The position numbers and the translations under genes were made by a program. DNA of 35,445 nucleotides from Leptolyngbyaceae cyanobacterium (GTDB taxonomy: Bacteria > Cyanobacteriota > Cyanobacteriia > Cyanobacteriales > Aerosakkonemataceae): assembly GCA_036703985.1 (NCBI GenBank), contig DATNQN010000123.1, positions 126,816 to 162,260 on the forward strand, given 5' to 3'. Under the pieces are notes generated by a model that was given only the letters and a program-made list of their open reading frames with translations, ran no database searches and was not told the DNA's origin. Positions 2,381-35,445 of the stretch are shown here, piece after piece. Each line of letters begins with the position of its first letter. Within the stretch, counting starts at the first letter, position 1.

Positions 2381-2528
2381 TAACGCAAGTTGCTAGTTAC
2401 AAATATTGACCTTTAGATACCCCTTGCATCCCCCTTAATAGGGGGACGCGAGAAGGCAGTCCCCCCCTTATTAAGGTGGGTTAGGGGGGATCTAAAGCGG
2501 CTAAATTCATAACTGGCAACTTGCGTTA
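2381..2528. mobile_element. MITE-like element (~148 bp) with 19-bp TIR TAACGCAAGTTGC(T/C)AGTTA, flanked by TA on both sides, internal GC-rich mini-palindromes (CCCCTTAATAGGGGG)
   Basis: The terminal inverted repeats 2381-2399 and 2510-2528 match 18 of 19 positions. A TA dinucleotide on each side is consistent with TA target duplication. There is no coding capacity. A second, more diverged copy lies at 10931-11068. Confidence 0.6.
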
Positions 2529-2794: not shown

Positions 2795-5700
2795 ATGAAA
2801 CACTGGTGCTACTTCGTCAAGAAAAGGAACGCACTAATCTTTCAGCAGAAATTTAAAAAAAGTGCGATCGCTATTATTCTGGTGGGAAATGGATCGATCG
2901 CAATTCCGAGTCATCCCGCTTTCGCTCAAATCGTCCCCGATACCACTTTAGGTAACGAAAATTCGACAGTTACGCCCATTGATTCCACATTCGATCGCAT
3001 TGACGGCGGCGCAACTAGAGGAATTAACTTATTTCATAGCTTTCAAGAGTTTAACATTGACGAAGGACGAGGAGTTTATTTCACAAATCCCGCAGGCATT
3101 CAAAACATTTTCAGTCGGGTAACGGGAACAAATCTTTCCCAAATTTTAGGAACTCTCGGCGTTACTGGCGGTAATGCCAGCTTATTTTTAATTAACCCAA
3201 ATGGCATCATTTTCGGGCAGAATGCTCGTTTGGATGTGGCAGGTTCATTTGTGGGAACAACCGCTCATGCAGTTCAATTCGGGCAACAAGGTTTTTTTAG
3301 TGCTGCTGCGCCAAACGTTCCGCAAATCCTTACAGTCAATCCTTCTGCTTTTCTATTCAATCAAATTACTGGCCCGATCGTCAATCAATCCACCGCCGAT
3401 GAAACGGGAATGCAAGTTCCGGCGGGTGCAAGTTTAATGCTAGTTGGTGGTGACATCACCTTAGACGGCGGTATCCTCCAAGCACCGGGAGGACGCATAG
3501 AATTAGGCGGTTTAGCAGACAAAGGAAGCATTCAAATTAACTGGGAAGCAAATAATCTCAATTTAACTTTTCCCACCGATGTAAAACGTGCAAATGTCTC
3601 CTTAGAAAATAACGCTCGCGTCGATGTCAGTGCTGACGGTGGTGGAAATATTGCTATTAATGTTGATAATTTGAATGTAACGGGAAAAAGTCAAATCCGG
3701 GCAGGGATAGCATCACAATTAGGTACAGTTGATGCTCAAGCGGGAAATATTGATATTAATGCTACTGGAACGCTTAGTTTAACTGATGCTAGCTTGATTT
3801 CTAATGCCGTGCAATCGGAAGCGATCGGTAAAGGAGGAAACGTTAACATTACCGTAGGAGCGCTTTCTGTTACCGAGCAAGCAGAACTGCAAACTCTCAC
3901 TCAAGGACAGGGAGATGCAGGCAATATTATGATTAAAGCTAACGATAACGTTAACTTTAATCAAAGTTTTGTTTTCAGTGGAATAACCGAAGAAGCTATC
4001 GGTAATGCGGGAAATATTGAGATTGATACTAGTTCCCTTTCTATTAGTAATGGCGCACAACTACAATCCTTAACTAGAGGAGAGGGAAATGCAGGAAATA
4101 TTGCTATTCGAGTAGAAGATGCAGTTACTTTAGATGGAATGGTAGAAGATACTGCTCCCAGCGGAATCACTAGTTTGGTGGAATTGGGAGCATTTGGTAA
4201 AGGCGGTGATATTACTATTCAAGGACGATCGATTTTCGTAACGAATGGCGCTCAATTAGGTACTAGCACTTTCGGACAAGGTGATGCCGGAAAAATCAAC
4301 ATTCAAGCCACAGAAAAAGTAGTATTTGATGGGGGATTAAGTAACACTTTTGCCACTGCTATTTTTAGTAACGTAACAGAGGGAGCAGTTGGTAATGCAG
4401 GGGGTATTAATATCACTGCCGGATCGTTATTTGTTAATAATAGTGCTTTTGTGGATTCTAGCACTTTTGGCGAAGGAAATGGAGGTGATTTATCCATTCA
4501 AACCAATGATGATATATCTGTGGTGGCAGGAAGCATTCAAGCTACAGTAGGAGAGCGTGCGATTGGTAATGCTGGTAATATTAATATTCAGGGCCGATCG
4601 CTTTTTGTCAGTGATGGCGGTTTATTAATCACTCGCACGAATGGAGAAGGAAATGCTGGCAATATAAATGTGAATGTAACCGATATTGCCATTATTACGG
4701 GAGTGCCAAAAAATGAAGATCCTTCGATAATTCAAACATTAGCTAGTGGAATTTATAGCAATACAGAGTTTGGTGCGATCGGTGATGGCGGTAACATTCA
4801 CATCCAAGCTGGAACGCTAAATGTTACCGATGGCGCTCAAATTAATGCCAGTACAATTAGCACTGGCAAAGCAGGAAATATTAATATAGTGGTGGGAAAT
4901 GCCCTAACAATTGCAGGAGAAAATGACTTTCCCAGCCGCAGTCAAATTACCAGTCGAGTCGGTGGATTTAGTTCTAATAATACGGTGCTATTTGCGGAAG
5001 GAGATGGAGGCGATATTACCATCAAAGCGGGATCGTTAGCATTACTTGACGGCGCAACTATAGATACAATTACCTTTGGCTTGGGAGATGCCGGCAATAT
5101 CGCTTTTGATGTACGAGATGACTTTACTTTGGCAGAGAGTGCGATCAATAGCCGTGTAGCATTTGGTGCAGAAGGTAAAGGCGGTAACATCAGCGTGCAA
5201 GCAGAATCGCTTTCCGTGAAGGAAGGAGCGGAGATCACGGGTAGCTCTTTTGGCAACGGAAATGCTGGCAATATAGATATTTCAGTTCGCGATCGCATTT
5301 CTTTAACAGGGGTAGATGATGAGTATGCCAGCCAAATTACTACGGAGGTTGGTGGTGCTAGTACTGGTAAAGCCGGATACATTCAGCTAAAAGCGCGATC
5401 GCTAGAAATTACAGATGGTGCGCTACTATCTTCTCGCACCTTTGCAGAAGGAGATGCTGGCAATATTTCCATTGAAGCAACTGACTCGGTTACTATTTCT
5501 GGAACAGCACAACCAACCTCCCCTGATTCGCTCATCAAAGGCATATCAAGCGGCATATTTACTAGTAGTGAAGGGCCGATTGAATTTAGCGGAATTGGCG
5601 GTGAAATTACCCTCACCACTGGCACTTTGCAAGTAACCAAAGGAGCAGTTTTAAGTGCTACCACATTAAGCGGATCTCCGGGCGGAAATATTGTAGTTAA

Positions 5701-6802
5701 TGCCAATCGTTTAGAATTATCCGATGGAGGACAATTACTCACCACAACTTTTAGCGATGGCAATGCTGGAAATATCACTGTTAAGGCAAATGAAAATATA
5801 ATTATTTCAGGAAGCGATCCTACATTTACCGATCGATTAGCCCAACTACAAAATGTGCAAAATGAAGCCTCATCTGAGGGTTTTGAATCGATCAATTTAA
5901 TCGGTCAAAGTCCCGCCAGTGGATTATTTGCTAATACCGGAAAAGATTCCACAGGTACGGGGGGAAACTTGACAATTTTTGCTAACCAGTTGACTATTGC
6001 AAATGAAGCCGCAGCCGCAGTCACCAGCCAAGGAACCGGAGGTGCAGGTACGTTAAAAATAACCGCTCCTATCTTGCAATTAAGCAATAGTAATTTAACT
6101 GCCGACACTCAAGAAAAAGGGCAAGGAAATATTGAATTAAACGCACAAAATATCCTACTGCGTCGCAACAGTTTAATTAGTACCAACGCAGGAAACACCA
6201 CAGGCGGTAATATTGCGATCGATACGCAATTATTAACCGCCCTAGAAAATAGCGATATTACAGCCAATGCAGTAGCAGGTTTTGGCGGTAGAGTTAACAT
6301 CACCGCCCAAGGGGTTATTGGCAGTCAGTTTCGCGCACAACAAACCCCAAACAGTGACATCACCGCCACATCTGAATTAGGTTCGCAATTTAGCGGCATT
6401 GTAGAAATTAATACCCCCGAAGTTGACCCCAGCGCGGGATTAATAGAATTGCCAGAAAATGTATTGGATATTAACCGATTAGTTGCCCAAAGTTGCCCAG
6501 CCAATCCTAACGAACAAGGTAGCGAATTTTTCATTACCGGACGCGCTGGTTTACCCCCCAATCCCAATGAAGCCCTCAGCGATGAAGCGACTTGGATAGA
6601 TTTAAGACCAACTAATAAAGCTTCAAATAATCAAACTCAAACACCAATAAGCGATCGTCAATTCTCTCCTCATACTACCAAAATAGTCGAAGCTACAGGT
6701 TGGGCGATCGCACCCGATGGTAAGCTAATCTTAATCGCCAATTCACTTAATCCCACACCCCATTCCCCAACATTCACCCCCCCTTCCTGCCAAAACAAGT
6801 AA
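2795..6802 (+). CDS. TpsA-like large exoprotein: N-terminal two-partner-secretion (haemagglutination activity) domain followed by long beta-helical G-x-G-N-A-G-N-I repeat region and a non-repetitive C-terminal ~250 aa
   Basis: The TPS-domain hallmarks include NPNGI (LINPNGIIFG, nt ~3194-3205) and the FSRVTG...LGTLGVTGGNASLFL context. About 25 degenerate repeats of G(E/Q)G(D/N)AGNIxI follow. The extended N-terminal signal region is typical of TpsA proteins. Confidence 0.85.
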   Translation: MKHWCYFVKKRNALIFQQKFKKSAIAIILVGNGSIAIPSHPAFAQIVPDTTLGNENSTVTPIDSTFDRIDGGATRGINLFHSFQEFNIDEGRGVYFTNPAGIQNIFSRVTGTNLSQILGTLGVTGGNASLFLINPNGIIFGQNARLDVAGSFVGTTAHAVQFGQQGFFSAAAPNVPQILTVNPSAFLFNQITGPIVNQSTADETGMQVPAGASLMLVGGDITLDGGILQAPGGRIELGGLADKGSIQINWEANNLNLTFPTDVKRANVSLENNARVDVSADGGGNIAINVDNLNVTGKSQIRAGIASQLGTVDAQAGNIDINATGTLSLTDASLISNAVQSEAIGKGGNVNITVGALSVTEQAELQTLTQGQGDAGNIMIKANDNVNFNQSFVFSGITEEAIGNAGNIEIDTSSLSISNGAQLQSLTRGEGNAGNIAIRVEDAVTLDGMVEDTAPSGITSLVELGAFGKGGDITIQGRSIFVTNGAQLGTSTFGQGDAGKINIQATEKVVFDGGLSNTFATAIFSNVTEGAVGNAGGINITAGSLFVNNSAFVDSSTFGEGNGGDLSIQTNDDISVVAGSIQATVGERAIGNAGNINIQGRSLFVSDGGLLITRTNGEGNAGNINVNVTDIAIITGVPKNEDPSIIQTLASGIYSNTEFGAIGDGGNIHIQAGTLNVTDGAQINASTISTGKAGNINIVVGNALTIAGENDFPSRSQITSRVGGFSSNNTVLFAEGDGGDITIKAGSLALLDGATIDTITFGLGDAGNIAFDVRDDFTLAESAINSRVAFGAEGKGGNISVQAESLSVKEGAEITGSSFGNGNAGNIDISVRDRISLTGVDDEYASQITTEVGGASTGKAGYIQLKARSLEITDGALLSSRTFAEGDAGNISIEATDSVTISGTAQPTSPDSLIKGISSGIFTSSEGPIEFSGIGGEITLTTGTLQVTKGAVLSATTLSGSPGGNIVVNANRLELSDGGQLLTTTFSDGNAGNITVKANENIIISGSDPTFTDRLAQLQNVQNEASSEGFESINLIGQSPASGLFANTGKDSTGTGGNLTIFANQLTIANEAAAAVTSQGTGGAGTLKITAPILQLSNSNLTADTQEKGQGNIELNAQNILLRRNSLISTNAGNTTGGNIAIDTQLLTALENSDITANAVAGFGGRVNITAQGVIGSQFRAQQTPNSDITATSELGSQFSGIVEINTPEVDPSAGLIELPENVLDINRLVAQSCPANPNEQGSEFFITGRAGLPPNPNEALSDEATWIDLRPTNKASNNQTQTPISDRQFSPHTTKIVEATGWAIAPDGKLILIANSLNPTPHSPTFTPPSCQNK

Positions 6803-6846: not shown

Positions 6847-6864
6847 TATCCAAACTACCTGTTC

Positions 6865-6890
6865 GTAGTGAGGACTTTAGTCCTCACTAC
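6865..6890. repeat. 26-bp perfect palindromic SDR GTAGTGAGGACTTTAGTCCTCACTAC; contains the stop codon and last codons (..VCSED*) of the FGGY kinase gene
   Basis: Palindrome read directly from the sequence. The same unit recurs at 7714-7767, 16477-16557 and 23341-23366. Confidence 0.85.
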
Positions 6891-8319
6891 AAACTGTGAT
6901 ATCATTCCCAACACCCCTCATCGCCAACAGCGCCGTACCATAAGCAGCAGCAGTATTCACTGGCGGTAAAATAGGTACTTTTAAATAACGAGCGCGAATT
7001 GCCATCCAAGTAGGATTCTTTGCACCACCGCCAGCAGTATAAACGCGAGTTAACGGCGTTGCACCAAATTGTTGCAATAACTGATAACCCCGTGCTTCAA
7101 TCCGAGCAATACTTTCCAACAAACCATGCAAAAATTCCGCTGGATTTTCCGGTCGAGGTGATAACTTTGGCTGCAAATTCGGGTCATTAATAGGAAAGCG
7201 ATCTCCTGGTTTCAACAAAGGATAATAATCAAGCAAAATCTCGTTTTCTCCATCAATTTCTTTACTTAAATTTTCCAATTCACTATCAGTAAAAAACTGC
7301 CGCAACACCGCACCACCAGTATTAGACGCACCTCCAACTAACCATAAATCAGACCTCGCCCCCAACCCCTCTCCTGCAAGGAGAGGGGAGTAATTCTCCC
7401 CCCTTCCCTGGTAGGGAAGGGGGGCTGGGGGGGTTAGGTTTATTGGTAACCTATGACTGTAAATTCCATATTTTGCATCATCTACGCGAGTGCGACTCAA
7501 CAATTTAATCACCAAAGTAGAACCCAAAGATGTACTAGCTTCACCGGGAGAAGTTGCACCGCTAGCAAGAAATGCGGCAATACTATCAGTAGTCCCCGCA
7601 CAAACTACGCAATCTTTTCTTAAACCTAAACTATGAGCAATTTCCAATGTTACTTCACCTATCGGAGTTCCCGGTGCAACAACTTCCGGCAATTGTATCG
7701 ATATATCTTCTAAGTTCGTAGTGAGGACTTCAGTCCTCAAAAAAGGACTAAAGTCCTTACTACAAACTAGCCATTCCGGATAACAGAGATTTTCCACATC
7801 GTAACCGAGTTTCAAAGCATTGTGATAATCACTAATTCCTAATTTTCCATGTAATAAAAAAGCCAACCAATCTGCCTGATGCAAAAAATAAAACCTTCTC
7901 TTATCCCCCCCTTGGTAAGGGGGGTTAGGGGGAATCTTTTCTAACCACCAGAAGAGTTTGGCGAGGGAAGAAGTAGCGCTGATTACGGTATGGTTTGGCG
8001 GTGCAATTTCCCTCACTTTATCCAATACTTCTGCACCCCGCGCATCGTTATACAAAAGCGGTTCATCAATTGGATTACCAGCAGCATCACAAAGTAGCAC
8101 GGTAGAGGAAGTCCCGTTCATACAAATCGCTTTAATTTGCTCCCGTAGTTGTTGAGGAATTTGGTGAATGAGAGAAAACAAAGCTTGCTGCCAAAGGTTT
8201 GCTAAATTTACTGAATTTTCAAATGGATATTGCGTTTCAGTTTCGATAATTCCTGTTTCATTGATTAATATTGCCCGTGCGCCAGATGTACCAAAATCGA
8301 TGCCAAGGTAGAGGTTCAT
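6877..8319 (-). CDS. FGGY-family carbohydrate kinase (xylulokinase/glycerol-kinase-like)
   Basis: N-terminus MNLYLGIDFGTSGARAILI is the FGGY N-terminal ATPase signature. The protein is 480 aa. The frame is intact despite four repeat insertions (see the repeat features). Confidence 0.8.
   Translation of the reverse strand: MNLYLGIDFGTSGARAILINETGIIETETQYPFENSVNLANLWQQALFSLIHQIPQQLREQIKAICMNGTSSTVLLCDAAGNPIDEPLLYNDARGAEVLDKVREIAPPNHTVISATSSLAKLFWWLEKIPPNPPYQGGDKRRFYFLHQADWLAFLLHGKLGISDYHNALKLGYDVENLCYPEWLVCSKDFSPFLRTEVLTTNLEDISIQLPEVVAPGTPIGEVTLEIAHSLGLRKDCVVCAGTTDSIAAFLASGATSPGEASTSLGSTLVIKLLSRTRVDDAKYGIYSHRLPINLTPPAPLPYQGRGENYSPLLAGEGLGARSDLWLVGGASNTGGAVLRQFFTDSELENLSKEIDGENEILLDYYPLLKPGDRFPINDPNLQPKLSPRPENPAEFLHGLLESIARIEARGYQLLQQFGATPLTRVYTAGGGAKNPTWMAIRARYLKVPILPPVNTAAAYGTALLAMRGVGNDITVCSED
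7362..7436. repeat. two GC-rich mini-palindromes (CCCCTCTCCTGCAAGGAGAGGGG at 7366-7388; CCCCCCTTCCCtggtaGGGAAGGGGGG at 7398-7424) inserted in-frame in the FGGY kinase CDS
   Basis: Perfect palindromes read from the sequence. They translate to ..LPYQGRGENYSPLLAGEGLGA.. inside the kinase. The same C-run/TT..AA/G-run architecture is found inside the MITE-like elements. Confidence 0.7.
7714..7767. repeat. compound palindromic SDR (GTAGTGAGGACTTCAGTCCTC-AAAAAA-GGACTAAAGTCCTTACTAC) inserted in-frame in the FGGY kinase CDS
   Basis: Same family as 6865-6890. It translates to ..LVCSKDFSPFLRTEVLTT.. on the minus strand. Confidence 0.8.
7903..7936. repeat. GC-rich mini-palindrome CCCCCCCTTGGTAAGGGGGG + TTAGGGGG inserted in-frame in the FGGY kinase CDS
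   Basis: Palindrome read from the sequence. It translates to ..IPPNPPYQGGDKR.. in the kinase. Confidence 0.7.
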
Positions 8320-9385: not shown

Positions 9386-10852
9386 TTATTCATCAATTAA
9401 CTTCTTAAAAGCTGGATGATTTTTGATTAAATCAAAACTAGTGTCGTTTTTGGCATGATTTTTAAATCTTTCACGATCTATTTTGGCTGCTTGCTGTAAA
9501 GTTTCAATTGCCATTTCTACATTACCTTGTTCTGCATAACAACCACCTTTGTTATACCAGGCCAAAAAGTTTTTAGGATTGATTTTAATCGCTTTTTCAC
9601 AAGATGCTATGGCTTCTTCGTAGCGTTTTAAATAACCTAAAGCCACGCCTCTATCTGTCCAAATAGTTGCATCATAAGCATAAATTTCAATTGCTTTATC
9701 ATAAGCTGCTATCGCTTCTTTATGCAGTTCTAAATGCGCTAGCAATTTCCCTTTTTCATACCACAACACATAAAATTCTGGTTGGAATTCTAATGCTTTA
9801 TTAAATGATTCGATCGCATCTTCATGTCGCTGCAAAGCCTTAAGAGCAAAGGCTCGTTCGTACCAAACTTCCCAAAAGTCCGGTTTAATTTCGACTGCTT
9901 TATCATAAGCGGTTAGCGCTTCCTCATCTTTTTGCAGTTGCAGCAATGCCGATCCTCGCTTATACCAAGCTTGCTCAAAATCAGACTTAAATCGAATAGA
10001 TTGGTCAAAATCAACAATGGCTTCTTCATATTTTCTGGCTTTCAATTTTCCATTACCTTTTTCGTACCAAGCTTCATGGGGTTTTTGGGTTATTTTACGT
10101 ACTACGAAAGCAATAATAATTGCAGCAACCAATAAAAAGGCAGCCCATTTATTAAATAGTTGAGCCCCTAAACTTATCATTAACGATGAAATGCCAAGTA
10201 GATGGGTAATGTAGAACGCACCCCTTGCTAATGCACTACCCAATGGTTCGACAAACCACAGCAAACCAAACAGAAGAATAATTCCGAATTTGGAAAATTT
10301 TCTGGCTTGATTTTGCATTTCTGGAGGTAGCCAAGGTTCGATGATACCAAAACCGTCTAGGGATGGAATTGGCAACAAATTTATTATCACAACAAAAGCT
10401 TCTAAATAAATCAAAAATGCCAAAGCAGGCCAAATCCAGGTATAATCATTTATTGATAACGCTTCTCCATTTCCCCCCAAAGATATGGTATTGATTGCAT
10501 CTAAAGATGATGGAAATCCTAATTTAAAAATGATGGCTAATATTAACATTACTAGAATGCTAAATAATGGGCCGGCAGCGGAAACGGCGCTTTTCCAAAA
10601 TCGATTGCGTAAGCGGTGATGATTGATATATACTGCTGCACCTGGGAGGGGAATTCCCCCAAGTAATAAGAAAATTAATGGTAATACTAGACTTAAATTA
10701 AAATCGGTATATTTAAGCGGATTTAAAGTTAAATAACCTTTCTCTTTTACTGATGTGTCTCCACCCCAATAGGCAACGATTGCATGACCGAATTCGTGGA
10801 GACAAACCGACGCCAACCACCCAACACAAACGAAAATGGCAACTTGCAACAT
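9386..10852 (-). CDS. membrane zinc metalloprotease (M50 / site-2 protease-like, HEFGH motif) fused to C-terminal TPR repeats
   Basis: The motif LHEFGHAIVAYWGG is an HExxH in a first transmembrane helix. Several predicted transmembrane segments follow. The C-terminal ~230 aa contain 5-6 TPR-like 34-mers (WYxxGxxLxxLxxxEEAxxxYDKAxEI). Confidence 0.7.
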   Translation of the reverse strand: MLQVAIFVCVGWLASVCLHEFGHAIVAYWGGDTSVKEKGYLTLNPLKYTDFNLSLVLPLIFLLLGGIPLPGAAVYINHHRLRNRFWKSAVSAAGPLFSILVMLILAIIFKLGFPSSLDAINTISLGGNGEALSINDYTWIWPALAFLIYLEAFVVIINLLPIPSLDGFGIIEPWLPPEMQNQARKFSKFGIILLFGLLWFVEPLGSALARGAFYITHLLGISSLMISLGAQLFNKWAAFLLVAAIIIAFVVRKITQKPHEAWYEKGNGKLKARKYEEAIVDFDQSIRFKSDFEQAWYKRGSALLQLQKDEEALTAYDKAVEIKPDFWEVWYERAFALKALQRHEDAIESFNKALEFQPEFYVLWYEKGKLLAHLELHKEAIAAYDKAIEIYAYDATIWTDRGVALGYLKRYEEAIASCEKAIKINPKNFLAWYNKGGCYAEQGNVEMAIETLQQAAKIDRERFKNHAKNDTSFDLIKNHPAFKKLIDE

Positions 10853-10885
10853 GATTTATCAACCTTTGCGGATTATGGGAGAATT

Positions 10886-10927
10886 CAGAAGTCAGAATTC
10901 AGGAGTCAGGAGTCAGGAGTCAGAATT
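10886..10927. repeat. tandem heptamer array (AGAAGTC AGAATTC AGGAGTC x3 AGAATTT)
   Basis: A 7-bp periodicity over 6 units read from the sequence. It lies immediately upstream (5') of the M50 protease start codon and abuts the MITE-like element. Confidence 0.8.
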
Positions 10928-10930
10928 TAT

Positions 10931-11068
10931 TAACGTAAATTGCTAGTTATAATCGATCCCCCCCTAACCCCCCTTAAAAAGGGGGGAACCGGATCTCTTA
11001 GTCTCCCTTTTAAAAAAAATGCAAGGGGGATCTAAAACGCCTAAACTCATAACTAGCAACTTGGGTTA
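10931..11068. mobile_element. second, diverged copy of the MITE-like element (TIR TAACGTAAATTGCTAGTTA / TAACTAGCAACTTGGGTTA), TA-flanked
   Basis: It shares TIR cores and internal blocks with 2381-2528 (GATCCCCCC, CCCCTTAA..GGGG, GGGGGATCTAAA.CG.CTAAA.TCATAACT). The TIRs carry three mismatches. Confidence 0.55.
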
Positions 11069-11115: not shown

Positions 11116-12051
11116 TTAAATTAAACAACGTTCGATGGTGGCGATTACTGATTGGGAAAGCGCTGTCAAATCGTAACCTCCTTCTAAACCAAACAGAATT
11201 TTTCGAGTCAATTTCAAACAATAATCGGTGAATGACCCGAAATCTTGGGGTAGTAATTCAATACTAGCTAAGGGATCGGCGGCGTTGGCATCGTAACCAG
11301 CACTTACTATTAATAAATCCGGTCGAAAAATCGATAAAAATGGCACGACTTGGGATTCAAATGCCTGTCGGTAATCAGCTACATTGCTACCGGGCATCAT
11401 GGGAATATTCAGCACGTTTTTATATTCTCCCCGTTCGTCTGCATATCCCGTACCTGGATAACAAGGTGATTGGTGCAAAGAACAATATGCAATTTTAGGA
11501 TGAGTTTCAATAATATCTTGAGTGCCGTTGCCGTGATGCACGTCCCAATCTAAGATTGCTATGCGGTTGATGCCCGGTTGTTCCAAAGCGTAATATGCTG
11601 CTGCTGCTGCATTGGAAAATAAGCAAAATCCCATACCCCGATCGCGTTCGGCGTGATGTCCCGGCGGACGCGCTAACACGAAAGCAGGTTCTCCCGTAGT
11701 TAAAACGCGATCGATCCCATCTAACCAAGCACTTACCGCCAACAGCGCAATATCATAACTGTCAGGGGAAACGGGAGTATCGGCATCCAGCCTTCCTCCC
11801 CCATTTTGCGCGATCGCTTTCACTCTCTCAATATGGGTCTGAGAATGCACCTTTTCCAGCAAAGGGATTAATGTTCTTTTTTGTACTGGTGTCGGTTCTT
11901 GCCAATCAAGTTTATCGGCATAATGTACGTTTTTTAAAGCATTCACAATAGCACTTAAGCGTTGAGGACGTTCTGGATGATACGCGCCAGTGTCGTGCAA
12001 CAAAAATCGATCGGAGTAAATTACAGGCAGCATATTGGTTAGCAATTCCAC
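11116..12051 (-). CDS. histone deacetylase-family (arginase/deacetylase fold; AcuC/acetylpolyamine amidohydrolase-like) protein
   Basis: Motifs include RPPGHHA, AILDWDVHHGNGTQ and the GGYD-type C-terminal region. The protein is 311 aa. Confidence 0.85.
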   Translation of the reverse strand: MELLTNMLPVIYSDRFLLHDTGAYHPERPQRLSAIVNALKNVHYADKLDWQEPTPVQKRTLIPLLEKVHSQTHIERVKAIAQNGGGRLDADTPVSPDSYDIALLAVSAWLDGIDRVLTTGEPAFVLARPPGHHAERDRGMGFCLFSNAAAAAYYALEQPGINRIAILDWDVHHGNGTQDIIETHPKIAYCSLHQSPCYPGTGYADERGEYKNVLNIPMMPGSNVADYRQAFESQVVPFLSIFRPDLLIVSAGYDANAADPLASIELLPQDFGSFTDYCLKLTRKILFGLEGGYDLTALSQSVIATIERCLI

Positions 12052-13865: not shown

Positions 13866-16460
13866 ATGACCACTTCCCAGGAGCGGATTATACCGACGGA
13901 TTTAGGGAACGAGATGTCCCGATCGTACCTGGAATACGCCATGAGCGTGATTGTAGGTCGGGCACTCCCAGATGCCAGGGATGGTCTGAAACCCGTCCAC
14001 CGTCGCATTCTCTACGCGATGCACGAGTTAGGACTAATGCCAGACCGACCTTTTCGGAAATGCGCCCGCGTGGTAGGGGAAGTGTTGGGTAAGTATCACC
14101 CCCACGGGGATACGGCAGTATACGACGCCCTGGTGCGGATGGCCCAGGATTTCTCCATGCGATCGCCCTTGATCAACGGACACGGTAACTTCGGTTCCGT
14201 CGATAACGACCCCCCAGCGGCGATGCGTTACACCGAATGTCGCCTGCACGCATTGACGACAGAAGCAATGTTGCGGGATATCGAAGCAGAAACCGTTGAT
14301 TTTGGCGATAACTTTGACGGTTCCCAGCAAGAACCCCTCGTTTTACCCGCGAGAGTTCCCCAGCTATTGCTGAACGGTTCCTCCGGGATCGCCGTGGGAA
14401 TGGCAACCAACATCCCGCCTCACAATTTGGGAGAACTGATTGACGGTTTGGTAGCGCTGATCCAAGACCCGGAAATTACTGATATCCAATTGATCAAATA
14501 TATACCCGGCCCTGACTTCCCCACGGGCGGGCAAATCTTGGGAACCACCAGTATTAAAGAAGCTTACACCACCGGGCGCGGTTCGATTACCATGCGGGGC
14601 GTAGCAAGAATTGAAACCGTCGAACAGCGAGGTCGTCCCGATCGGGAAGCCATTATCGTCACCGAGTTACCATACCAAACCAATAAGGCAGCTTTAATCG
14701 AAAAAATTGCCGAACTAGTTAACGACAAACGGTTAGAAGGAATCGCCGATATTCGGGATGAAAGCGATCGCGATGGAATGCGAATCGTGATCGAACTAAA
14801 ACGCGATGCTTATCCGAGAGTTGTCCTGAATAACCTTTACAAACAAACGCCATTACAAGCAAACTTCGGGGCAAATATGCTAGCCCTGGTGAATGGCGAA
14901 CCGCAACTTTTAACTCTCAAACAATTCCTCAGCGTTTTCCTCGATTTCCGCATTGAATGCGTTACCCGTCGCACTCAATACGAACTAAGAAAAGCCGAAG
15001 AAAGAGACCATTTATTGCAAGGGTTATTGATTGCGCTGGCTAATTTAAGTGCCATCATCGAATTGATCCGCCACGCAGCTGATGCGCCAACTGCCCGTCA
15101 GGAAATGATCGAAAACTACGGGCTTTCCGAAGCACAAGCAGATGCGATCCTGCAAATGCAATTGCGGCGATTAACCGCATTAGAAGCTGAAAAGATCCGC
15201 CAAGAACATGAAGATTTACAAGTACAAATTACCGATCTGCGGGATATTTTAGCGCGGCGAGAGCGCGTTTTGGAAATCATCGAAACCGAAGTCAAGCAGC
15301 TAAAAACTACCTTTGCCACTCCCAGACGCACCACCATCGAACACGCGGAAGGAGAAATCGACGATACCGATTTAATTGCCAATGAAAAAGCGCTGATTCT
15401 GGTAACAGAACAAGGTTACATCAAACGGATGCCAGTGAATGCTTTTGAAGCACAAAGTCGGGGAACTCGCGGCAAAGCAGCTAACCGCATGAAAGAAGAT
15501 GACGGTGTAGAACACTTTTTGACTTGTTGCGATCACGACAGCGTTTTATTATTTAGCGATCGCGGTGTCGTTTATTGTTTGAAAGCTTATCAAATTCCGG
15601 CTTCATCTCGTAACGCCAGAGGCGTTCCCATCGTACAGATGTTGCCGATACCGCGAGAAGAAAAAATCACCTCGATCGTATCAGTAGCAGAATTCACCAG
15701 CGATGAATATCTGATCATGCTAACCGCAGGTGGTTATATTAAAAAAACCGAATTGGCAGCTTTTAGCAATATCCGCGCCAATGGATTAATTGCCATTTCT
15801 TTAGAAGAAGGCGATCAATTGCGGTGGGTACGTCGCGCCCGTGATGAAGATAGTATTATCATCGGGTCTCGTCTGGGCATGGCAATTCATTTTAGGGCCG
15901 ATCGCGAACAATTGCGTCCTTTAGGTCGCGCCACCAGAGGCGTCAGGTCAATGTCCTTGAAAGAAGGCGATAGCCTGATCAGTATGGACGTTCTCCCCGG
16001 ATCGGTGTTAAATACCGCCTTAAGCGCAGCAGCAGAGGAAGAAGAAGAAAGCACTTCTGCCAACATAGAAACTGTCGAAGCAACGGAAGAAGCCCCGATC
16101 GCCGCCCCAGTTGGCCCTTGGGTCTTGGTAATCACCACCGGAGGATACGGCAAACGAGTGCCAGTATCTCAATTCCGCTTGCAAAATCGTGCCGGAATGG
16201 GGATTCTCGCCACCAAATTCCGCAAAACAACCGATCGCCTAGCCGCATTGCACATCGTCAATCACGATGACGAGTTAATGATGGTAACGAGTCGAGGTAT
16301 CATCATCCGCCAAGTAGTCAATGCCATCTCGCCCCAGTCCCGCATGGCAACTGGTGTCCGGGTACAACGCTTGGACGAAGATGATGCTATAGCAGCTGTT
16401 GCATTAGTTCCCCCCACTAGTGAAACTAGTGAAAATGGAGAAGAAGAAGAGACTGAATAA
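13866..16460 (+). CDS. gyrA: DNA gyrase subunit A
   Basis: The N-terminus carries [32 protein letters not shown] with the catalytic Tyr region. Six C-terminal beta-pinwheel repeats follow. A cyanobacterial-type acidic insertion and an acidic C-terminal tail are present. Confidence 0.97.
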
Positions 16461-16476
16461 CTAATAGCAAGGTGGG

Positions 16477-16557
16477 CAAAAGGACTAAAGTCCTTACTAC
16501 AAACCATAAAAATTAAATTGTTAGTTCGTTTGTAGTGAGGACTTCAGTCCTCAAACC
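16477..16557. repeat. compound SDR: two inverted copies of the GTAGTGAGGACT..AGTCCTCACTAC-family unit (16477-16504 and 16528-16557) separated by 23 bp, between gyrA stop and lnt start
   Basis: Read from the sequence. The second unit contains an in-frame ATG (16535) that the ORF track used as the lnt start. Confidence 0.8.
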
Positions 16558-16570
16558 GCAAAAAAGTTAC

Positions 16571-18187
16571 ATGAAAATCAAAATCATATGGCATTTCGCC
16601 ATCTCTTTATTTGGCGGTATTCTAATGGGGTTAACAACTGCCCCAGTAAATGCTTGGCCATTAGCATGGATAGCCCTAATTCCCCTCTGGATTTCAGTAA
16701 TTAAAACTCAAAACAAACCAAAACCATTTCACCCTTCACCCTTCATCCTTCATCCTTTACTTTGGGGTATCGGATATCACGGCATTGCCTTATTTTGGAT
16801 TACCGGAATTCACCCCATGACATGGCTGGGAGTTCCCTGGTGGCCGAGTTTAGCGATCGCAATTTTTTGTTGGACGTTCATCACTCTTTGGGGTGCGGCA
16901 TTAGTTACCGTTTGGGCGATCGCCTCTAAAACCATTTTCAACTTAATTGAAAATCCCAAATCTCCCCTCAAAAATAGCCTTTTTCGCATCTTAATCGGCA
17001 CGACTTTTTGGTGTGCTTTAGAAACCTTTTGGAGTTGGGGCGATTTATGGTGGACATCCCTATCTTACACCCAAAGCCCCCACAATCTCCCAATTTTACA
17101 CCTCGCTCAAATTTCCGGCCCCAACACGATTACAGCCGCTATCGTAGCCGTAAACGCAACAATTGCTGAATTGGTCATCGGTCATTGGTCATTGGTCATT
17201 AATAAAGAAAAACATAAGTTATATCGAAAAATTTTCCCTAAATTACTGGTTATCATTAGTTTCTTAGTAGGATTGCATTTAATAGGATTTTTTCTCTATA
17301 ATCGTCCCCTGATTCAAACACCAGAAACCGCATTAAAAGTAGGAATCATTCAAGGCAATATACCTAATCAAATCAAATTCAATTCAGCCGGATGGTATCG
17401 CGCTATCGAAGGTTATACCACCGGATATCGCGAGTTAGCAGATCGGGGAGTCGATGCAGTTTTAATCCCCGAAACAGCATTACCATTTATCTGGACAGAT
17501 CCGAATCAAGTCCCTCGTTCCTTTTACTCTGCCGTATTAGAAAAAGGCGTAGTTGCTTGGGTAGGAGGTTTTGGACAAGAAGGAAATAATTTTACCAACA
17601 GCTTATTTACAATTAGTGGCAATGGTAACATTTTCAGCCGTTACGACAAAGTAAAATTAGTTCCCTTGGGAGAATATATCCCCTTTGAAGAAATCGTCGG
17701 AAAATTAATCGATCGCCTTTCTCCCCTAGACGCCCATTTAGTGAAAGGAAAACCAACTCAAATATTTGAAACCCCTTTTGGGCGTGCCATAGTCGGTATT
17801 TGCTACGATTCGGCTTTTGCTAAACTCTTTCGCCGTCAAGCTGCGGCGGGCGGGCAATTTATTCTCAGCGCTTCTAATGACGCCCATTATAAAGCATCGA
17901 TGGCTGCCCAACACCATGCCCAAGATGTAATGCGGGCAATTGAGAACGATCGCTGGACTCTCAGAGCCACCAATACAGGTTATTCTGCGATCGTAGACCC
18001 CCACGGCAGAACTCTGTGGATATCGAAAATTAACACTTACGAAATTCATGCGGCAACAATTTATCGGCAACAGAGTCAAACCTTATATGTTCGCTGGGGA
18101 GATTGGTTAACACCCCTTTTGCTAGCAATAGTTACGACCACTAGTGCAGGAGAATATTACTACCAAAGGGTGAAGTCGGAAGTCTAA
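16571..18187 (+). CDS. lnt: apolipoprotein N-acyltransferase
   Basis: An N-terminal polytopic membrane domain is followed by a CN-hydrolase domain (VGICYDSAFAKLFRR..SASNDAHY). The start at 16571 (MKIKIIWH..) is preferred over 16535, which lies inside the SDR. The CDS contains two in-frame heptamer arrays. Confidence 0.85.
   Translation: MKIKIIWHFAISLFGGILMGLTTAPVNAWPLAWIALIPLWISVIKTQNKPKPFHPSPFILHPLLWGIGYHGIALFWITGIHPMTWLGVPWWPSLAIAIFCWTFITLWGAALVTVWAIASKTIFNLIENPKSPLKNSLFRILIGTTFWCALETFWSWGDLWWTSLSYTQSPHNLPILHLAQISGPNTITAAIVAVNATIAELVIGHWSLVINKEKHKLYRKIFPKLLVIISFLVGLHLIGFFLYNRPLIQTPETALKVGIIQGNIPNQIKFNSAGWYRAIEGYTTGYRELADRGVDAVLIPETALPFIWTDPNQVPRSFYSAVLEKGVVAWVGGFGQEGNNFTNSLFTISGNGNIFSRYDKVKLVPLGEYIPFEEIVGKLIDRLSPLDAHLVKGKPTQIFETPFGRAIVGICYDSAFAKLFRRQAAAGGQFILSASNDAHYKASMAAQHHAQDVMRAIENDRWTLRATNTGYSAIVDPHGRTLWISKINTYEIHAATIYRQQSQTLYVRWGDWLTPLLLAIVTTTSAGEYYYQRVKSEV
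16728..16759. repeat. heptamer array (CCCTTCA/TCCTTCA x~4.5) in-frame inside lnt, encoding ..FHPSPFILHPLL..
   Basis: A 7-bp periodicity read from the sequence. It belongs to the same CCTTCAT/ATGAAGG family seen in intergenic arrays at 18188-18245, 21185-21226, 29221-29262 and 34405-34425. Confidence 0.8.
17171..17200. repeat. STRR2-type heptamer array TTGGTCA x4 in-frame inside lnt, encoding ..ELVIGHWSLVIN..
   Basis: Exact TTGGTCA repeats read from the sequence. TTGGTCA is the STRR2 unit described in heterocystous cyanobacteria (recalled from memory). Confidence 0.85.
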
Positions 18188-18282
18188 AGGATGAAGTATT
18201 AAGTCTGAAGGATAAATAATAAAGGATGAAGGATGAAGTAAAAAGAATTTAATTTTGAATTTTGAATTTTGAATTTTGAATT
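18188..18282. repeat. intergenic heptamer arrays (AAGGATG/ATGAAGG-type followed by AATTTTG x5)
   Basis: The sequence reads aattttgaattttgaattttgaattttgaattc at 18250-18282. Spurious ORFs translate this region as HPSSF/ILHPLDF repeats. Confidence 0.8.
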
Positions 18283-18336: not shown

Positions 18337-20121
18337 ATGACACTTCCTATCAACACATTCTTTGACGAAGGTTACTATAGCCTCAACAATCCTGATGTTT
18401 ATGCCGCCATTCTCAAAGGACAAATTAGTAACGGATACCAACATTTCATCAGCGTTGGTGCTAGAGATGGACGCAATCCAAGTGAAGTATTTGACAGCAA
18501 ATATTACTTAGGTTTGTATCCAGATATAGCAGCAGCAGTTGCTAATGGCAGCATTGCTAGTGCTTACGATCATTTCGTGCAATTCGGTGCTAGAGAAGGG
18601 CGCGATCCTTCTCCCTTATTCAGCAGCAGTTACTACCTCAGTCAATATCCAGATGTAGCAGCAGTTGTTAATAGTGGAGGCATTCGTAGCGCTTTCGATC
18701 ATTTTTTAGCATTTGGTGCTAACGAGGGTCGAAATCCCAGTTCATTATTTAATACTAGCGTTTATCTCAGTCAAAATCCAGATGTGGCTACTGCGGCTGC
18801 TACAGGTGTAATTAGTGCTTTTGAACATTATATTCGCTTCGGTAAAAACGAACAAAGACCGGGTGTATTAGCCGATCGATTCGACATTCAATTTGACTAT
18901 CGTTTTGATACCAATCGTTTTTTTGCCGACCCGGTAAGAAGGGGTGTTTTAGAAGCAGCAGCTAATGTCTGGGAATCTTATATCCAAAATGAATTTAAAG
19001 ATGTTCCTGCTGGTACTTCATTTAGATTTCTCAATCCTACATCTGGTTTGATTGAAGAATTAAGTTTAAATTCTGATATTGATGATTTGCTAATTTTGGT
19101 AGGGGCAGGGCCAACACCTTTTGGCGACTTAACCGATGCTTTGGCAGCTTCTGCTACAGAAGGTTACGAAACTACTGGCAGTACCTACTACAACCGATTA
19201 ACTGGCTCTCAATTTCAACCTTTTCTCGGTACGCTTTCGTTTAATTCCACATTAAATTGGTTTTTCGATCCCTCGCTGGATACATCTAATGATATCCCCT
19301 CCGGGGCGCAAGATTTTTACAGTACTGCTTTGCACGAAATCGCACATATTTTGGGATTGGGAGGCGCACCTATTTTCCGACAATTAGGTGAAGGGGCTTT
19401 GTTTAACGGTGTGAATGCCAAAAATGTAAATGGCGGTTCTCCGATTCCTTTAGAAACCGATTTAGGACATATCAAAGATGGTTTTTTAAGTGATGGTCAA
19501 CCAACGTTAATGGACCCCACTTATCCGAATGCTCGAATTATTCCCACGCGGGTAGATTTGGCAATGTTGGCGGATATTGGTTACCGAATTCCCGGTTTTC
19601 AACCGCAAGGTTCTTTATCAACTTTATCAACTCCTAATGATGACACTATTTTTGGTACGGTGCAGAATGATGTCATCAATGGTAATGCTGGTAATGACTA
19701 TCTTTTGGGTGATTTAGGTGCGGATATTCTCAGGGGTGGTGCTGGGGATGATATCGTTTCTGGGGAAGATGATAATGATATCTTATTTGGCGATCGCGGA
19801 AACGATCGAGTATCGGGCGGTTTAGGCGATGATATCATCATTGGTGGCCCTGGCGATGATAACTTGTTTGGCAGCGGTGGGCGAGATACATTTATTTATG
19901 ACGCTGGCAGAGATGCGATCGCGGATTTCCGAGTATCAGAAGACATAGTACAAGTAAGTCGAGCCCTCGGTTTTGCTAATGGTGCTGCTGCTTTCAACGC
20001 GATTACTACCGGGACGAATGACAATGGCGATCGCTATTCCATCTTGACAGTTACTTCCCAAAACATCCTCACCATCTTCCACGATGTGCCGATGACAGCA
20101 GCTAACTTTACAGTTGTCTAG
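18337..20121 (+). CDS. secreted RTX-type (hemolysin-type Ca-binding repeat) protein with four N-terminal ~46-aa tandem repeats and a central metzincin-like domain carrying a degenerate HEIAHILGLGG motif
   Basis: There is no N-terminal signal peptide. Four repeats of ..YYLSQYPDVAAAV..G.I.SAFDHF..FGA.EGR.PS.LF lie at aa ~10-185. HEIAH is at nt 19333-19347, but the third His of HEXXHXXGXXH is replaced by Gly. GGxGxDxUx nonapeptide repeats occupy aa ~450-520, consistent with a T1SS substrate. Confidence 0.75.
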   Translation: MTLPINTFFDEGYYSLNNPDVYAAILKGQISNGYQHFISVGARDGRNPSEVFDSKYYLGLYPDIAAAVANGSIASAYDHFVQFGAREGRDPSPLFSSSYYLSQYPDVAAVVNSGGIRSAFDHFLAFGANEGRNPSSLFNTSVYLSQNPDVATAAATGVISAFEHYIRFGKNEQRPGVLADRFDIQFDYRFDTNRFFADPVRRGVLEAAANVWESYIQNEFKDVPAGTSFRFLNPTSGLIEELSLNSDIDDLLILVGAGPTPFGDLTDALAASATEGYETTGSTYYNRLTGSQFQPFLGTLSFNSTLNWFFDPSLDTSNDIPSGAQDFYSTALHEIAHILGLGGAPIFRQLGEGALFNGVNAKNVNGGSPIPLETDLGHIKDGFLSDGQPTLMDPTYPNARIIPTRVDLAMLADIGYRIPGFQPQGSLSTLSTPNDDTIFGTVQNDVINGNAGNDYLLGDLGADILRGGAGDDIVSGEDDNDILFGDRGNDRVSGGLGDDIIIGGPGDDNLFGSGGRDTFIYDAGRDAIADFRVSEDIVQVSRALGFANGAAAFNAITTGTNDNGDRYSILTVTSQNILTIFHDVPMTAANFTVV

Positions 20122-20130
20122 CGCTGGGCA

Positions 20131-20264
20131 ATGGTCATCAGTCATTTGTCATTAGTTATTAGTTATTAGTTATTAGTTAGTTTGCATTTACCACTAACCA
20201 CTAACTAATTAACAATCACTATTTTCCGATCGCAAATGACCGATGACCAATGACCAATGACCAA
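20131..20264. repeat. long imperfect hairpin built from heptamer arrays (ATGGTCA.., TAGTTAT x4 | ..CTAACCA, GACCAAT x3) between convergent RTX gene and cysH
   Basis: The left half (GGTCAT.., TAGTTAT array) is the reverse complement of the right half (ACTAACC.., ATGACC/GACCAAT array). GACCAAT is the reverse complement of STRR2. The array abuts the cysH TAA stop at 20265-20267. Confidence 0.8.
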
Positions 20265-20999: not shown

Positions 21000-21184
21000 T
21001 CTTTACACCTCTGTTAGTTAAGCACAAGTACTTATCTTACATTTCATTAAGCACTTTTAAGTAACTTAAGGAAAAAAGAATCTTTTTTCTCATTTGCGAT
21101 CGAACCTTCACCCCATTGGCCCAGGACTTAGGCTTGTTGACTAAGGAATGAGGGGTGCAGGGGAGAGAGGGAGATAAATATAAT

Positions 21185-21226
21185 TTCATCCTTCATCCTT
21201 CATCCTTCACACTTCATCCTTCACTC
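21185..21226. repeat. heptamer array CATCCTT/CACCTTC x6 overlapping the stop codon of tsaB
   Basis: The sequence reads ttcatccttcatccttcatccttcacacttcatccttcactc. The minus-strand TGA (21221-21223) lies in the last unit. Confidence 0.8.
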
Positions 21227-23299: not shown

Positions 23300-23340
23300 T
23301 TTGTAGCAACCAAAAGCTTTATTTGGTAAATTCCGAGCTT

Positions 23341-23366
23341 GAGGACTTTAATCCTTACTACAAACC
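23341..23366. repeat. single unit of the GAGGACTTTA(A/G)TCCTTACTACAAAC SDR family immediately 3' of ycf34
   Basis: It matches the units at 16477-16504 and 7741-7767. It ends 4 nt from the ycf34 stop. Confidence 0.75.
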
Positions 23367-29220: not shown

Positions 29221-29262
29221 AGGCAAGGGGAAAGGATGAAGTATGAAGGATAAAGGATGAAG
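29221..29262. repeat. AAGGATG/ATGAAGG-type heptamer array directly 3' of cdsA
   Basis: The sequence reads aaggcaaggggaaaggatgaagtatgaaggataaaggatgaag. Confidence 0.7.
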
Positions 29263-34266: not shown

Positions 34267-34417
34267 GGGGCTAGGGGCTAGGGGCTAGGGGAAGAGGGGA
34301 AAGGGAGAAAAGGGGAAAGAGAAAATTTTGTGGCTCTTGAATTCTGACTCCTGACTCCTTTCCTTACTCCTGAATTCTGAGTTCTGAATTCTGAATTCTG
34401 AATTCAGCCTTCATCCT
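34262..34417. repeat. composite heptamer arrays (GGGGCTA x3, purine-rich GGGGAAAGGGAGAAAAGGGGAAAGAG, then pyrimidine-rich CTGACTCCTGACTCC.., TGAATTC x4, CCTTCAT x2) forming an imperfect long hairpin between convergent NUDIX and rlmN genes
   Basis: Read from the sequence. The purine-rich left arm partly complements the pyrimidine-rich right arm. The rlmN TGA stop (34418-34420) lies inside the terminal CCTTCATCC unit. Confidence 0.75.
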
Positions 34418-35445
34418 TCATCCTTTAGTTGCTCTTAATTGTCCGCAAGCGGCATCTGCTTCTAATCCTCGCGAATAGCGGACGCTAACTGCAATATGTC
34501 GCTTTTCTAAAGCTGATACGAAAGCTTGAATGCGTTTAGCATTGGGTCTTTGATAATCAGCTTCGTGAATGGGATTGTAAGGAATCAAATTAACGTGACT
34601 TTGGAAACCTTTTATATATTCAGCTAATTCTTGGGCGTGTTCTGGTAAATCATTTAATCCGGCCAAGAGAATATATTCAAAAGTTACTCTTCTGCCAGTT
34701 ATTTTTACATATTCCCGACATTCGGATAGCAAAGTTTCGATCGGATAATGTTTGGCACTGGGAATTAGTTTTTCTCGTAAAGTTTGATTGGATGCGTGCA
34801 GACTAACTGCTAAAGTAACTTGCAATTGATATTCTGCTAAACTGCGAATTTTACCAGGAATGCCAACCGTAGAAATAGTGATTCCTCGTTGTCCAATACC
34901 GACATCTTGATTGAGGGATTTGACGGCTCCAACTACATGATCTACATTCAATAATGGTTCGCCCATACCCATAAAGACAATGTGGCTGACGCGACGTTGA
35001 AAATCTTCTTGAACGGTGAGAACTTGATCGATTATTTCGTGGCGGGCTAGGTTGCGAATGAAACCGCCTTTGCCGGTGGCGCAGAAGTCGCACGCCATTG
35101 GACAACCAACTTGGGAAGAAACGCAAACAGTTAAGCGTTTTTCGGAGGGAATACCGACAGTTTCAATGATGTTTCCATCGTCAAGTTTGAGTAAATATTT
35201 GACGGTTTCATCGCTGGCAACTGAGCGATAATGAATAGTTGCTCGACCAATGTTTATGTCTGCTAAATCTTCTCGCCATTGTTTGGGAAAAACTGTAATT
35301 TCGGCAAGATTACGGATTCCTTTTTCATAAATCCATTGATGTAATTGACGACCTCGATATGCTGGTTGTCCTTGTTGTTTTACCCAATCGGTTAATTCTG
35401 TTAAATTTGCACCGAGTAGGGGTGGGGAGATGGGGGGATGGGGGG
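34418..35445 (-). CDS. rlmN: 23S rRNA (adenine2503-C2)-methyltransferase / tRNA m2A37 methyltransferase RlmN, radical SAM; 5' end runs off the window
   Basis: The radical-SAM CxxxCxxC motif reads ..[16 protein letters not shown]. Manual translation upstream of the ORF-track M (35098) stays open to the window edge and gives the RlmN N-terminal domain (..[50 protein letters not shown]..). The C-terminal Cys reads ..ADAACGQL. Confidence 0.9.

Follow-up and report, generated by a model that had tools for sequence, protein, structure and literature searches.

The stretch of DNA considered in this study (the window) comprises 35,445 nucleotides from a Leptolyngbyaceae cyanobacterium (GenBank assembly GCA_036703985.1, contig DATNQN010000123.1, positions 126,816 to 162,260 of the forward strand) and contains two copies of a small repeat with inverted ends. 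Copy 1 is found in the spacer of ~700 bp that follows a DUF4327 gene, at a distance of 269 bp upstream from the ATG of a gene for a two-partner-secretion (TPS)-domain exoprotein (TpsA; 2795–6802). Copy 2 is found between an HDAC-like gene (11116–12051, minus strand) and a gene for an M50 protease with TPR repeats (9386–10852, minus strand), 48 bp past the stop of the former and 79 bp upstream of the ATG of the latter. The surrounding genes, which were identified in a Pfam scan, further include a PhoD phosphatase (59–1654) and an FGGY kinase (6877–8319, minus strand). A preliminary description of this DNA had placed the two repeats in the leader of the TpsA gene and in the 5' region of the M50 gene, had regarded them as non-autonomous and similar to miniature transposable elements with inverted repeats (MITEs), and had assigned them to IS630/Tc1-mariner-type transposition. 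In our analysis, the gene context and the MITE-like nature with terminal inverted repeats hold, whereas the family does not: the copies most probably are MITEs of the IS982 family of insertion sequences (ISs), with an interior of small G/C-rich repeats.

Two copies with matching ends

The two copies are defined by a 19-nt end, TAACGCAAGTTGCTAGTTA, for which the window contains four matches with 0–2 mismatches, compared to 0.03 in shuffled sequence. These matches pair up in inverted orientation, namely 2381–2399 (+) with 2510–2528 (-) and 10931–10949 (+) with 11050–11068 (-), and no further match with up to two mismatches exists in the window, which thus holds exactly two copies. Next to their ends, the copies share a 45-nt subterminal block, GGGGGATCTAAA.CG.CTAAA.TCATAACT.GCAACTTG.GTTAG, with 89% identity, and in addition several inverted matches in their interiors. 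The coordinates given in the preliminary description (2381–2528 and 10931–11068), its 19-bp terminal inverted repeats, its shared internal blocks and the TA with which it let each copy start and end are all borne out by these comparisons.

As detailed below, we consider the element proper to be slightly shorter, starting with AC and ending with GT. It then spans 2383–2526 in copy 1 (144 bp) and 10933–11066 in copy 2 (134 bp); both copies are non-coding. In copy 1, pattern matches delimit a left terminal inverted repeat, ACGCAAGTTGCTAGTTA (2383–2399, plus strand), which begins with AC and is shared with IS982 elements, and a right one at 2510–2526 (minus strand), which reads TAACTGGCAACTTGCGT on the plus strand. 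Each of them is adjoined by the hexamer TAGATA, on the left at 2377–2382 and on the right at 2527–2532. The corresponding repeats of copy 2 are TAACGTAAATTGCTAGTTA (10931–10949, plus strand), with two mismatches and the element proper beginning at 10933, and TAACCCAAGTTGCTAGTTA (11050–11068, minus strand), with one mismatch and the element proper stopping at 11066. The flank that adjoins the latter end at 11068, GTCGTTAA, has no intact duplicate in the opposite flank.

No transposase was found in the window, in agreement with the preliminary description: a tblastn search with two IS982 transposase queries returned nothing below E = 1, and no transposase was present among the seven window ORFs (open reading frames) scanned against Pfam, the remaining ORFs lying outside that scan. 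An autonomous partner must therefore be sought outside the window, as had been supposed, and full-length IS982 elements with the same ends do indeed exist in other genomes.

The ends are shared with IS982 elements

To characterize the family, the degenerate end TAACSYAARTTGCYAGTTA was scanned against a contig collection with one genome per species, which resulted in at least 120 loci, all those listed being from genomes other than that of the window. About three quarters of the listed loci are cyanobacterial, including representatives of Microseira, Floridaenema, Nostoc, Anabaena, Calothrix, Chamaesiphon, Microcystis, Argonema and Microcoleus, and the others come mainly from Poribacteria, Bacteroidota, Pyrinomonadaceae and one metagenome-assembled genome (MAG) of the Verrucomicrobiales. 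When the ends were paired in inverted orientation, the listed loci and the window together yielded 63 elements, of which about 50 are 110–480 bp and ten are 927–1093 bp long.

Among the matches listed, the long elements contain a single ORF of ~290–305 aa that matches the Pfam family DDE_Tnp_1. Two of these ORFs score 186 and 161 bits with the NCBIfam IS982 equivalog NF033520 (cut-off 130), the other eight match the IS982 ORF of locus L022 in tblastn, and an IS982-type ORF was found in the same way beside a terminal repeat in 13 of the fetched loci. Likewise, on plasmid pNPUN02 of Nostoc punctiforme PCC 73102, the Prokaryotic Genome Annotation Pipeline (PGAP) annotates an 'IS982 family transposase' within a 1061-bp element whose ends are the same and which shows a duplication of TAATA. 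By contrast, no IS630 gene is located between these ends in any of the full-length elements examined, i.e. in the matches listed and pNPUN02. As full-length elements with the same ends thus carry IS982 ORFs, the partner family is IS982 and not IS630/Tc1-mariner, and the search for an IS630 transposase with matching repeats, which the preliminary description had advised, leads to ORFs that are all of the IS982 or DDE_Tnp_1 type. In ISfinder, IS982 elements are listed with AC ends and direct repeats of 3–9 bp.

The sequence that the IS982 elements and the MITEs have in common is confined to the first 19–21 nt. IS982 elements together with MITE-sized derivatives, near-identical 19-nt ends and TA-X-TA flanks (X being a short direct repeat, see below) are also present in the loci L024, L031, L042, L044, L058, L091, L097 and L117, which belong to Pyrinomonadaceae, Poribacteria, Bacteroidota and the Verrucomicrobiales MAG; both the 19-nt end sequence and the target rule are hence conserved across phyla, with such IS982 elements in Bacteroidota, Acidobacteriota, Poribacteria and Verrucomicrobiota besides the cyanobacteria. 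When viral contigs were scanned for the terminal-repeat pattern, 15 single matches resulted, which is about chance level, the plasmids of PCC 7120 and ATCC 29413 contained no copies of the element, and a text search of the literature for the terminal-repeat sequence returned nothing but unrelated primers. Judged by these sequence comparisons, both copies can be classed as real non-coding miniature transposons, of the IS982 rather than the IS630 family.

The target site and its duplication

Among the matches listed and the window, 43 of the 63 elements follow the scheme TA-X-[TAAC...GTTA]-X-TA, with X standing for a direct repeat of 0–3 nt, usually 1–2. When left and right flanks were paired at random, this number averaged 6.4 and reached 14 at most. 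The TA-X-TA duplications have a length of 4–7 bp, mostly 5–6, in MITEs and full-length ISs alike. Because X differs between copies within one genome, it is no part of the element, and the simplest reading would be an element proper with AC and GT as its ends and a duplicated target of the form TA-N(1-3)-TA, i.e. 5–7 bp, in keeping with the AC ends and 3–9 bp repeats of IS982 elements. A nested insertion in Microseira (L076) illustrates this point: here, one MITE has inserted into the TAGTTA within the terminal repeat of another copy and is flanked by TAGTTA on either side. It is the duplication of the whole TA-N(1-3)-TA site, then, that makes each copy look as if it were bounded by TA. A duplication of TA only, as previously assumed, is at odds with the direct repeats beyond TA in these 43 elements as well as with the empty site described in the following.

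This empty site is found in a MAG (NCBI GCA_964546365.1; L140 in the following), which was reached via homologues of the HDAC-like protein. Its contig is fully syntenic and, over 20 kb, shares 91–98% identity with the window. At copy 1, the window reads CATC, TAGATA, the 144-bp element, TAGATA and GTTAAGCC; at the same site, L140 reads on the opposite strand GGCTTAAC-TATCTA-GATGAAAGTCA, with one hexamer and no element. Copy 1 and L140 thus form a clean filled/empty pair with a 6-bp duplication. According to the preliminary description, an empty site in which TA proves not to be duplicated would speak against its proposal; this is the case insofar as TA alone is not the duplication but forms the inner end of a longer one. 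Copy 1 apparently is a recent insertion in the lineage of the window, without counterpart in this close relative. At 19506–19537, 11 bp from its empty site, L140 also has an extra 32-bp segment.

Since Argonema galeatum and Planktothrix sp. FACHB-1355 have kept the HDAC–M50 gene pair but not the TpsA region, they can serve to polarise copy 2 but not copy 1. In L140, a nearly identical copy 2 is found, whereas the HDAC–M50 spacer of three more distant relatives (L143, L145 and L146, which include the two species just named) lacks it, and this distribution identifies it as an older, derived insertion. Its age is also reflected in the diverged ends, one disrupted flank and one decayed interior unit. 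Logan contigs of an L140-like organism break off within copy 2, a common effect of repeats, and metagenome scans with the predicted copy 1 empty site and with a subfamily-specific 26-nt block gave no match.

An interior of independent G/C units

The interior of both copies is built around a unit of ~32 nt, C6-TTnnnAA-G6-TTA-G6-ATC, with the complement GAT-C6-TAA-C6-TTnnnAA-G6. Copy 1 contains two such units in inverted orientation. Unit 1 (2416–2445, minus strand), recognized in the inverted-pair comparison, has the C-rich form GATA-CCCC-TTGCAT-CCCCC-TTAATA-GGGGG. Unit 2 (2460–2492, plus strand), recognized by repeat comparison and pattern match, reads T-C7-TTATTAA-GGTGGG-TTA-G6-ATC and has the layout of a triplex motif. 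Copy 2 contains one good unit in the C-rich form, GATC-C6-TAA-C6-TTAAAAA-G6 (10955–10986, minus strand; pattern match), and a decayed one, TCTCCC-TTTT-A8-TGCAA-GGGGG-ATC (11003–11032, plus strand), which was found as an inverted match to unit 1 of copy 1.

These units are not confined to the MITEs. Hairpins with a C-run, TT..AA and a G-run occur in both copies and at 7905–7924 in the FGGY ORF, with five pattern matches against 0.05 expected, and unit 2 of copy 1 is 88% identical to the unit at 7904–7937 in this ORF. The latter, TC7-TTGGTAA-G6-TTA-G5-AATCT (plus strand), is a solo unit, in frame and without IS982 ends, and is related to the MITE interior without being part of a MITE. A second site in the same ORF, 7351–7446, holds an inverted pair of units as a 32-codon in-frame insert, which corresponds to the architecture of the MITE interior without the terminal repeats. 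In a blastn comparison of the whole element with plasmids, likewise, only the interior G/C units found matches, and not the ends, in Nostoc, Kovacikia, Gloeothece, Geminocystis, Calothrix, Pseudanabaena, Oscillatoria and Synechocystis; this restriction was the first hint that the interior is a separate repeat. On plasmid pC052_A of Nostoc sp. C052 (L019, 1460–1625), the same pair of units resides in a MITE with the unrelated ends GAAGATGTTTGAAAAGT, whose terminal repeats are GAGGATGTTTGAAAAGT and ACTTTTCAAACATCTTC and which is inserted between genes for an RND adaptor and an ABC permease. In Floridaenema fluviatile (L030, 7803–7959), at least three units form a tandem array with a period of ~36 nt (GATCCCCCCCAACCCCCCTTATTAAGGGGGGCTTTT), adjoining an IS982-type terminal repeat. 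GATC follows the unit in nearly all cases. Conversely, most elements with these IS982 ends among the matches listed lack G/C units and contain inverted heptamer arrays, such as (GCTAATG)n...(CAATTAG)n, or unrelated sequence. The G/C unit is a small repeat of cyanobacteria in its own right and is not restricted to this MITE. The preliminary description had equated the mini-palindromes of the copies in kind with those of the FGGY gene, which is correct, and had interpreted them as fragments or cargo of the element family. This idea is half right: cargo they are in the sense that this subfamily carries them, but they also occur in a MITE with unrelated ends, alone in ORFs and in tandem arrays.

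The units at 2460–2492, 7904–7937 and 10955–10986 have the sequence layout C6-7/TT-nnn-AA/G6/TTA/G5-6 or its complement. This agrees with the Y-R-R/Y-Y-R pattern of three stems of at least 6 nt with short loops described for intrastrand triplexes (Holder et al., 2015; PMC4666352), although the first loop, with TT and AA counted in, measures 7 nt, one more than the 6-nt limit used there.

Other small repeats in the window

Compared to its solved homologues 5HTR and 5HTN, the FGGY ORF has three in-frame, repeat-derived insertions, of ~7 residues (the G/C unit at 7904–7937), ~17 residues (a doublet of GTAG palindromes at 7714–7767) and 32 residues (the unit pair at 7351–7446), all of which are also present in L140. 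At the codon position after WWLE, the window (7904–7937) and L140 contain the G/C unit, and L143 (8310–8340), whose contig ends at this site, contains a GTAG-tagged palindrome instead. It appears from this that different small repeats share one insertion site or can replace each other there.

The GTAG-tagged palindromes, GTAGTGAGGACTTCAGTCCTCA, often form inverted doublets and are located at 6861–6894, 7714–7767, 16478–16555 and 23339–23365. They look like the REP/REPIN elements that are linked to RAYT transposases. Where the window has 110 bp with a GTAG palindrome doublet (16460–16569), L140 has ~590 bp with a 23S_rRNA_IVP/bAvd-like gene (5037–5402). Furthermore, many intergenic regions contain tandem heptamers (AGGAGTC/AGAATTC, AAGGATG, CATTGGT and similar), which match each other in both orientations, with arrays at 10880–10927, 16728–16761, 17169–17200, 18166–18245, 20125–20256, 21178–21225, 29225–29262 and 34361–34429. 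The array beside copy 2 differs from that of L140 by one unit, and three short Logan contigs that match the M50 protein break in the heptamers before they reach the MITE. Finally, the TpsA ORF contains many diverged coding repeats of the GNAGNI type (3635–5796), as is typical of filamentous-haemagglutinin-like exoproteins.

Predicted fold of the copies

In folding models that allow Watson-Crick and G-U pairs only, copy 1 and its flanks form one long hairpin, in which unit 1 pairs with unit 2, with -44.6 kcal/mol as DNA (z = -10.0) and -81.7 kcal/mol as RNA (z = -9.4). The predicted fold of copy 2 is weaker (z = -4.2). Hairpins of this kind could affect transcripts that cross them. Consensus scans found no sigma-70-like promoter and no intrinsic terminator inside either copy, no Rfam family matched anywhere in the window at its gathering score, and a tRNA scan of the window was empty. 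The TpsA orthologue is kept in L140 without copy 1, and the M50 orthologues are kept in the three distant relatives without copy 2; as the orthologous genes stand without the elements, both copies are dispensable insertions.

Discussion

We consider it probable, at roughly 87%, that the two copies are IS982-family MITEs that are moved in trans, duplicate a TA-N(1-3)-TA target and contain an interior of independent G/C units. In such a system, the element proper would be ~134–144 bp long, start with AC, end with GT and have inverted repeats of 17–19 nt (AC[G/C/T][C/T]AAGTTGCTAGTTA), but no gene. It would most likely be mobilised in trans by a DDE transposase of the IS982 family that is encoded elsewhere in the genome and recognises these ends. 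Insertion would take place at an A+T-rich TA-N(1-3)-TA, with the whole site of 5–7 bp being duplicated. The interior would not be derived from a transposase gene; instead, its two inverted G/C units would give rise to the fold into a long hairpin.

Several points weigh against this reading. The gain of copy 1 in the window and its precise loss from L140 via the 6-bp repeats look the same in sequence. The duplication at copy 2 is not intact, with TA-A-CGAC-TA (i.e. an extra CGAC) on one side and TA-A-TA on the other, and the empty site of L143, ATGTTAAATTCT, is 2–3 nt off the predicted TAATA site. The overall likeness of the two copies amounts to ~75–80%, and neither is a recent source of the other. 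Moreover, the count of two copies applies to the 35-kb window, and a matching IS982 transposase was found neither in this window nor in 21 kb of the relative. Movement in trans, finally, is what we infer.

The assignment to an IS630/Tc1-mariner-type MITE, with insertion at TA, a duplication of TA only and an IS630-family transposase, would account for the fact that both copies as written start and end with TA, and IS630 elements are common in cyanobacteria, with nine IS630 types in Microcystis, for instance. However, the full-length elements found with these ends, among the matches listed and on pNPUN02, all encode IS982 and none IS630, direct repeats continue outside TA in 43 of the 63 elements, and the empty site of copy 1 reveals a 6-bp duplication. 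A 2-bp duplication would also require copy-specific bases at one end of the element, and varying bases cannot be transposon ends. Given the IS982 ORFs between the ends, the longer duplications and this empty site, we rejected this reading as exceedingly improbable. Little more can be said for the view that the copies are kept upstream of TpsA and M50 for their function, as conserved RNA elements or elements of regulation in cis (attenuators, terminators or genes for small RNAs, for example). The very stable predicted hairpins and the position of both copies in 5' intergenic regions are in line with it, and MITEs elsewhere in bacteria affect neighbouring mRNAs, as summarized in reviews. Yet no Rfam family reaches its threshold in the window, neither copy contains a sigma-70 or intrinsic-terminator consensus, and copy 1 is absent upstream of the TpsA orthologue in L140, just as copy 2 is upstream of the M50 orthologue in three relatives. 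In addition, the interiors vary freely while the ends are conserved, as is characteristic of selection through a transposase rather than through a host function, and we regard such a role as highly unlikely.

A less remote, though doubtful idea is that the G/C module itself is the mobile or selected unit, that the IS982 ends are just one of several scaffolds for it, and that the copies are a simpler MITE invaded by small repeats. It draws on the presence of the same pair in the MITE with unrelated ends on the plasmid of Nostoc sp. C052, on the single and paired modules in frame in the FGGY ORF without terminal repeats, on the tandem arrays in Floridaenema (L030), on the heptamer arrays or unrelated sequence in other elements with these ends among the matches listed, and on the FGGY codon position that holds a different small palindrome in a relative. 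This idea is compatible with an IS982-family MITE and not an alternative to it; the boundaries of the copy 1 gain or loss correspond exactly to the IS982 ends plus duplication, which means that the entire MITE moved in one piece. For the module alone, no filled/empty pair was found, and it would have to spread by an undescribed mechanism of its own. Still more speculatively, the ~32-nt unit, usually as an inverted pair, might be an independent tiny mobile cassette that spreads between MITE scaffolds, intergenic DNA and in-frame positions of ORFs. If this were true, the interiors of cyanobacterial MITEs would be built from a shared pool of micro-elements by an undescribed mechanism, and their small-repeat slots would be exchangeable.

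IS982-derived MITEs are not without precedent: MITECca01 derives from ISCca4 of Cardinium (PMC9769881). Like this system, the window copies are short non-coding elements that share their ends with IS982 elements, the partner being a single-ORF DDE transposase of ~280–300 aa in an element of ~0.93–1.09 kb; they begin with AC, as IS982 elements do, and their target duplication is short and variable. Unlike MITECca01, they reside in a filamentous cyanobacterium, and their target has a clear TA-N(1-3)-TA form. Only the ~19–21 nt of the ends are common with the IS, and the interior consists of small repeats typical of the host and is no remnant of an internal deletion. With IS630/Tc1-mariner MITEs, they share the TA at the junction, the size and the hairpin shape, but not the transposase family (IS982 here) or the length of the duplication (2 bp versus 5–7 bp here).

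MITEs are abundant in cyanobacteria, and one of them, Nezha, has ISNpu3 of Nostoc punctiforme as its proposed partner (Zhou, Tran & Xu, 2008). Like the elements described here, Nezha (130–170 bp) is cyanobacterial, forms a stable hairpin, inserts into A+T-rich targets and shows filled and empty sites between relatives. N. punctiforme, the source of ISNpu3, also carries the IS982 element with exactly the ends of the window copies, and the published direct repeat of Nezha, CATTATCTAC, contains TA-TC-TA, but is given as 10 bp versus 5–7 bp here. By these descriptions, Nezha and the window MITEs may be the same family.

The interior unit, too, has known counterparts. For the TMECO repeat of Escherichia coli, a class II purine-motif layout of C-stem, loop, G-stem, 3-nt loop and G-stem was described, and hundreds of G/C-rich triplex motifs were reported from Microcystis, Anabaena and Nostoc (Holder et al., 2015). 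By its sequence, C6-TTnnnAA-G6-TTA-G6, our unit is of this triplex type and resembles TMECO type A in its class II layout and TTA loop. Unlike TMECO, whose stems have the 9-nt sequence CCCTCNCCC, its stems are homopolymeric C/G runs of 5–7 nt, and GATC nearly always follows; the cyanobacterial motifs of that study are similar in kind and may have this same sequence. Nostocaceae reportedly harbor small dispersed repeats (SDRs) that are embedded in minitransposons and heptamer arrays. By description, the units reported here are alike in being very small (~21–34 nt), capable of forming hairpins, located inside minitransposons and heptamer arrays, and nested in other repeats. A later paper reported SDRs only in Nostocaceae; the G/C unit, by contrast, is also seen in Oscillatoriales, Microcystis and others.

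Overall, the copies represent an ordinary cyanobacterial MITE that was apparently mobile in recent times. They show that TA at the junctions is insufficient for an IS630 assignment, as it forms the edge of a TA-N(1-3)-TA duplication by an IS982-type element here, and the target rule in combination with the 19-nt end provides a simple annotation handle for a MITE superfamily that the scan detected in numerous genera of cyanobacteria. The gene for the two-partner-secretion exoprotein, with a filled and an empty site upstream, offers a natural test of an effect on expression. The more unusual lead, however, is the shared G/C module with its apparently exchangeable small-repeat sites. Its presence in unrelated MITE scaffolds and in frame in an enzyme gene links the literature on MITEs to that on intrastrand-triplex repeats, and points to an approach to the question of how very small repeats spread.

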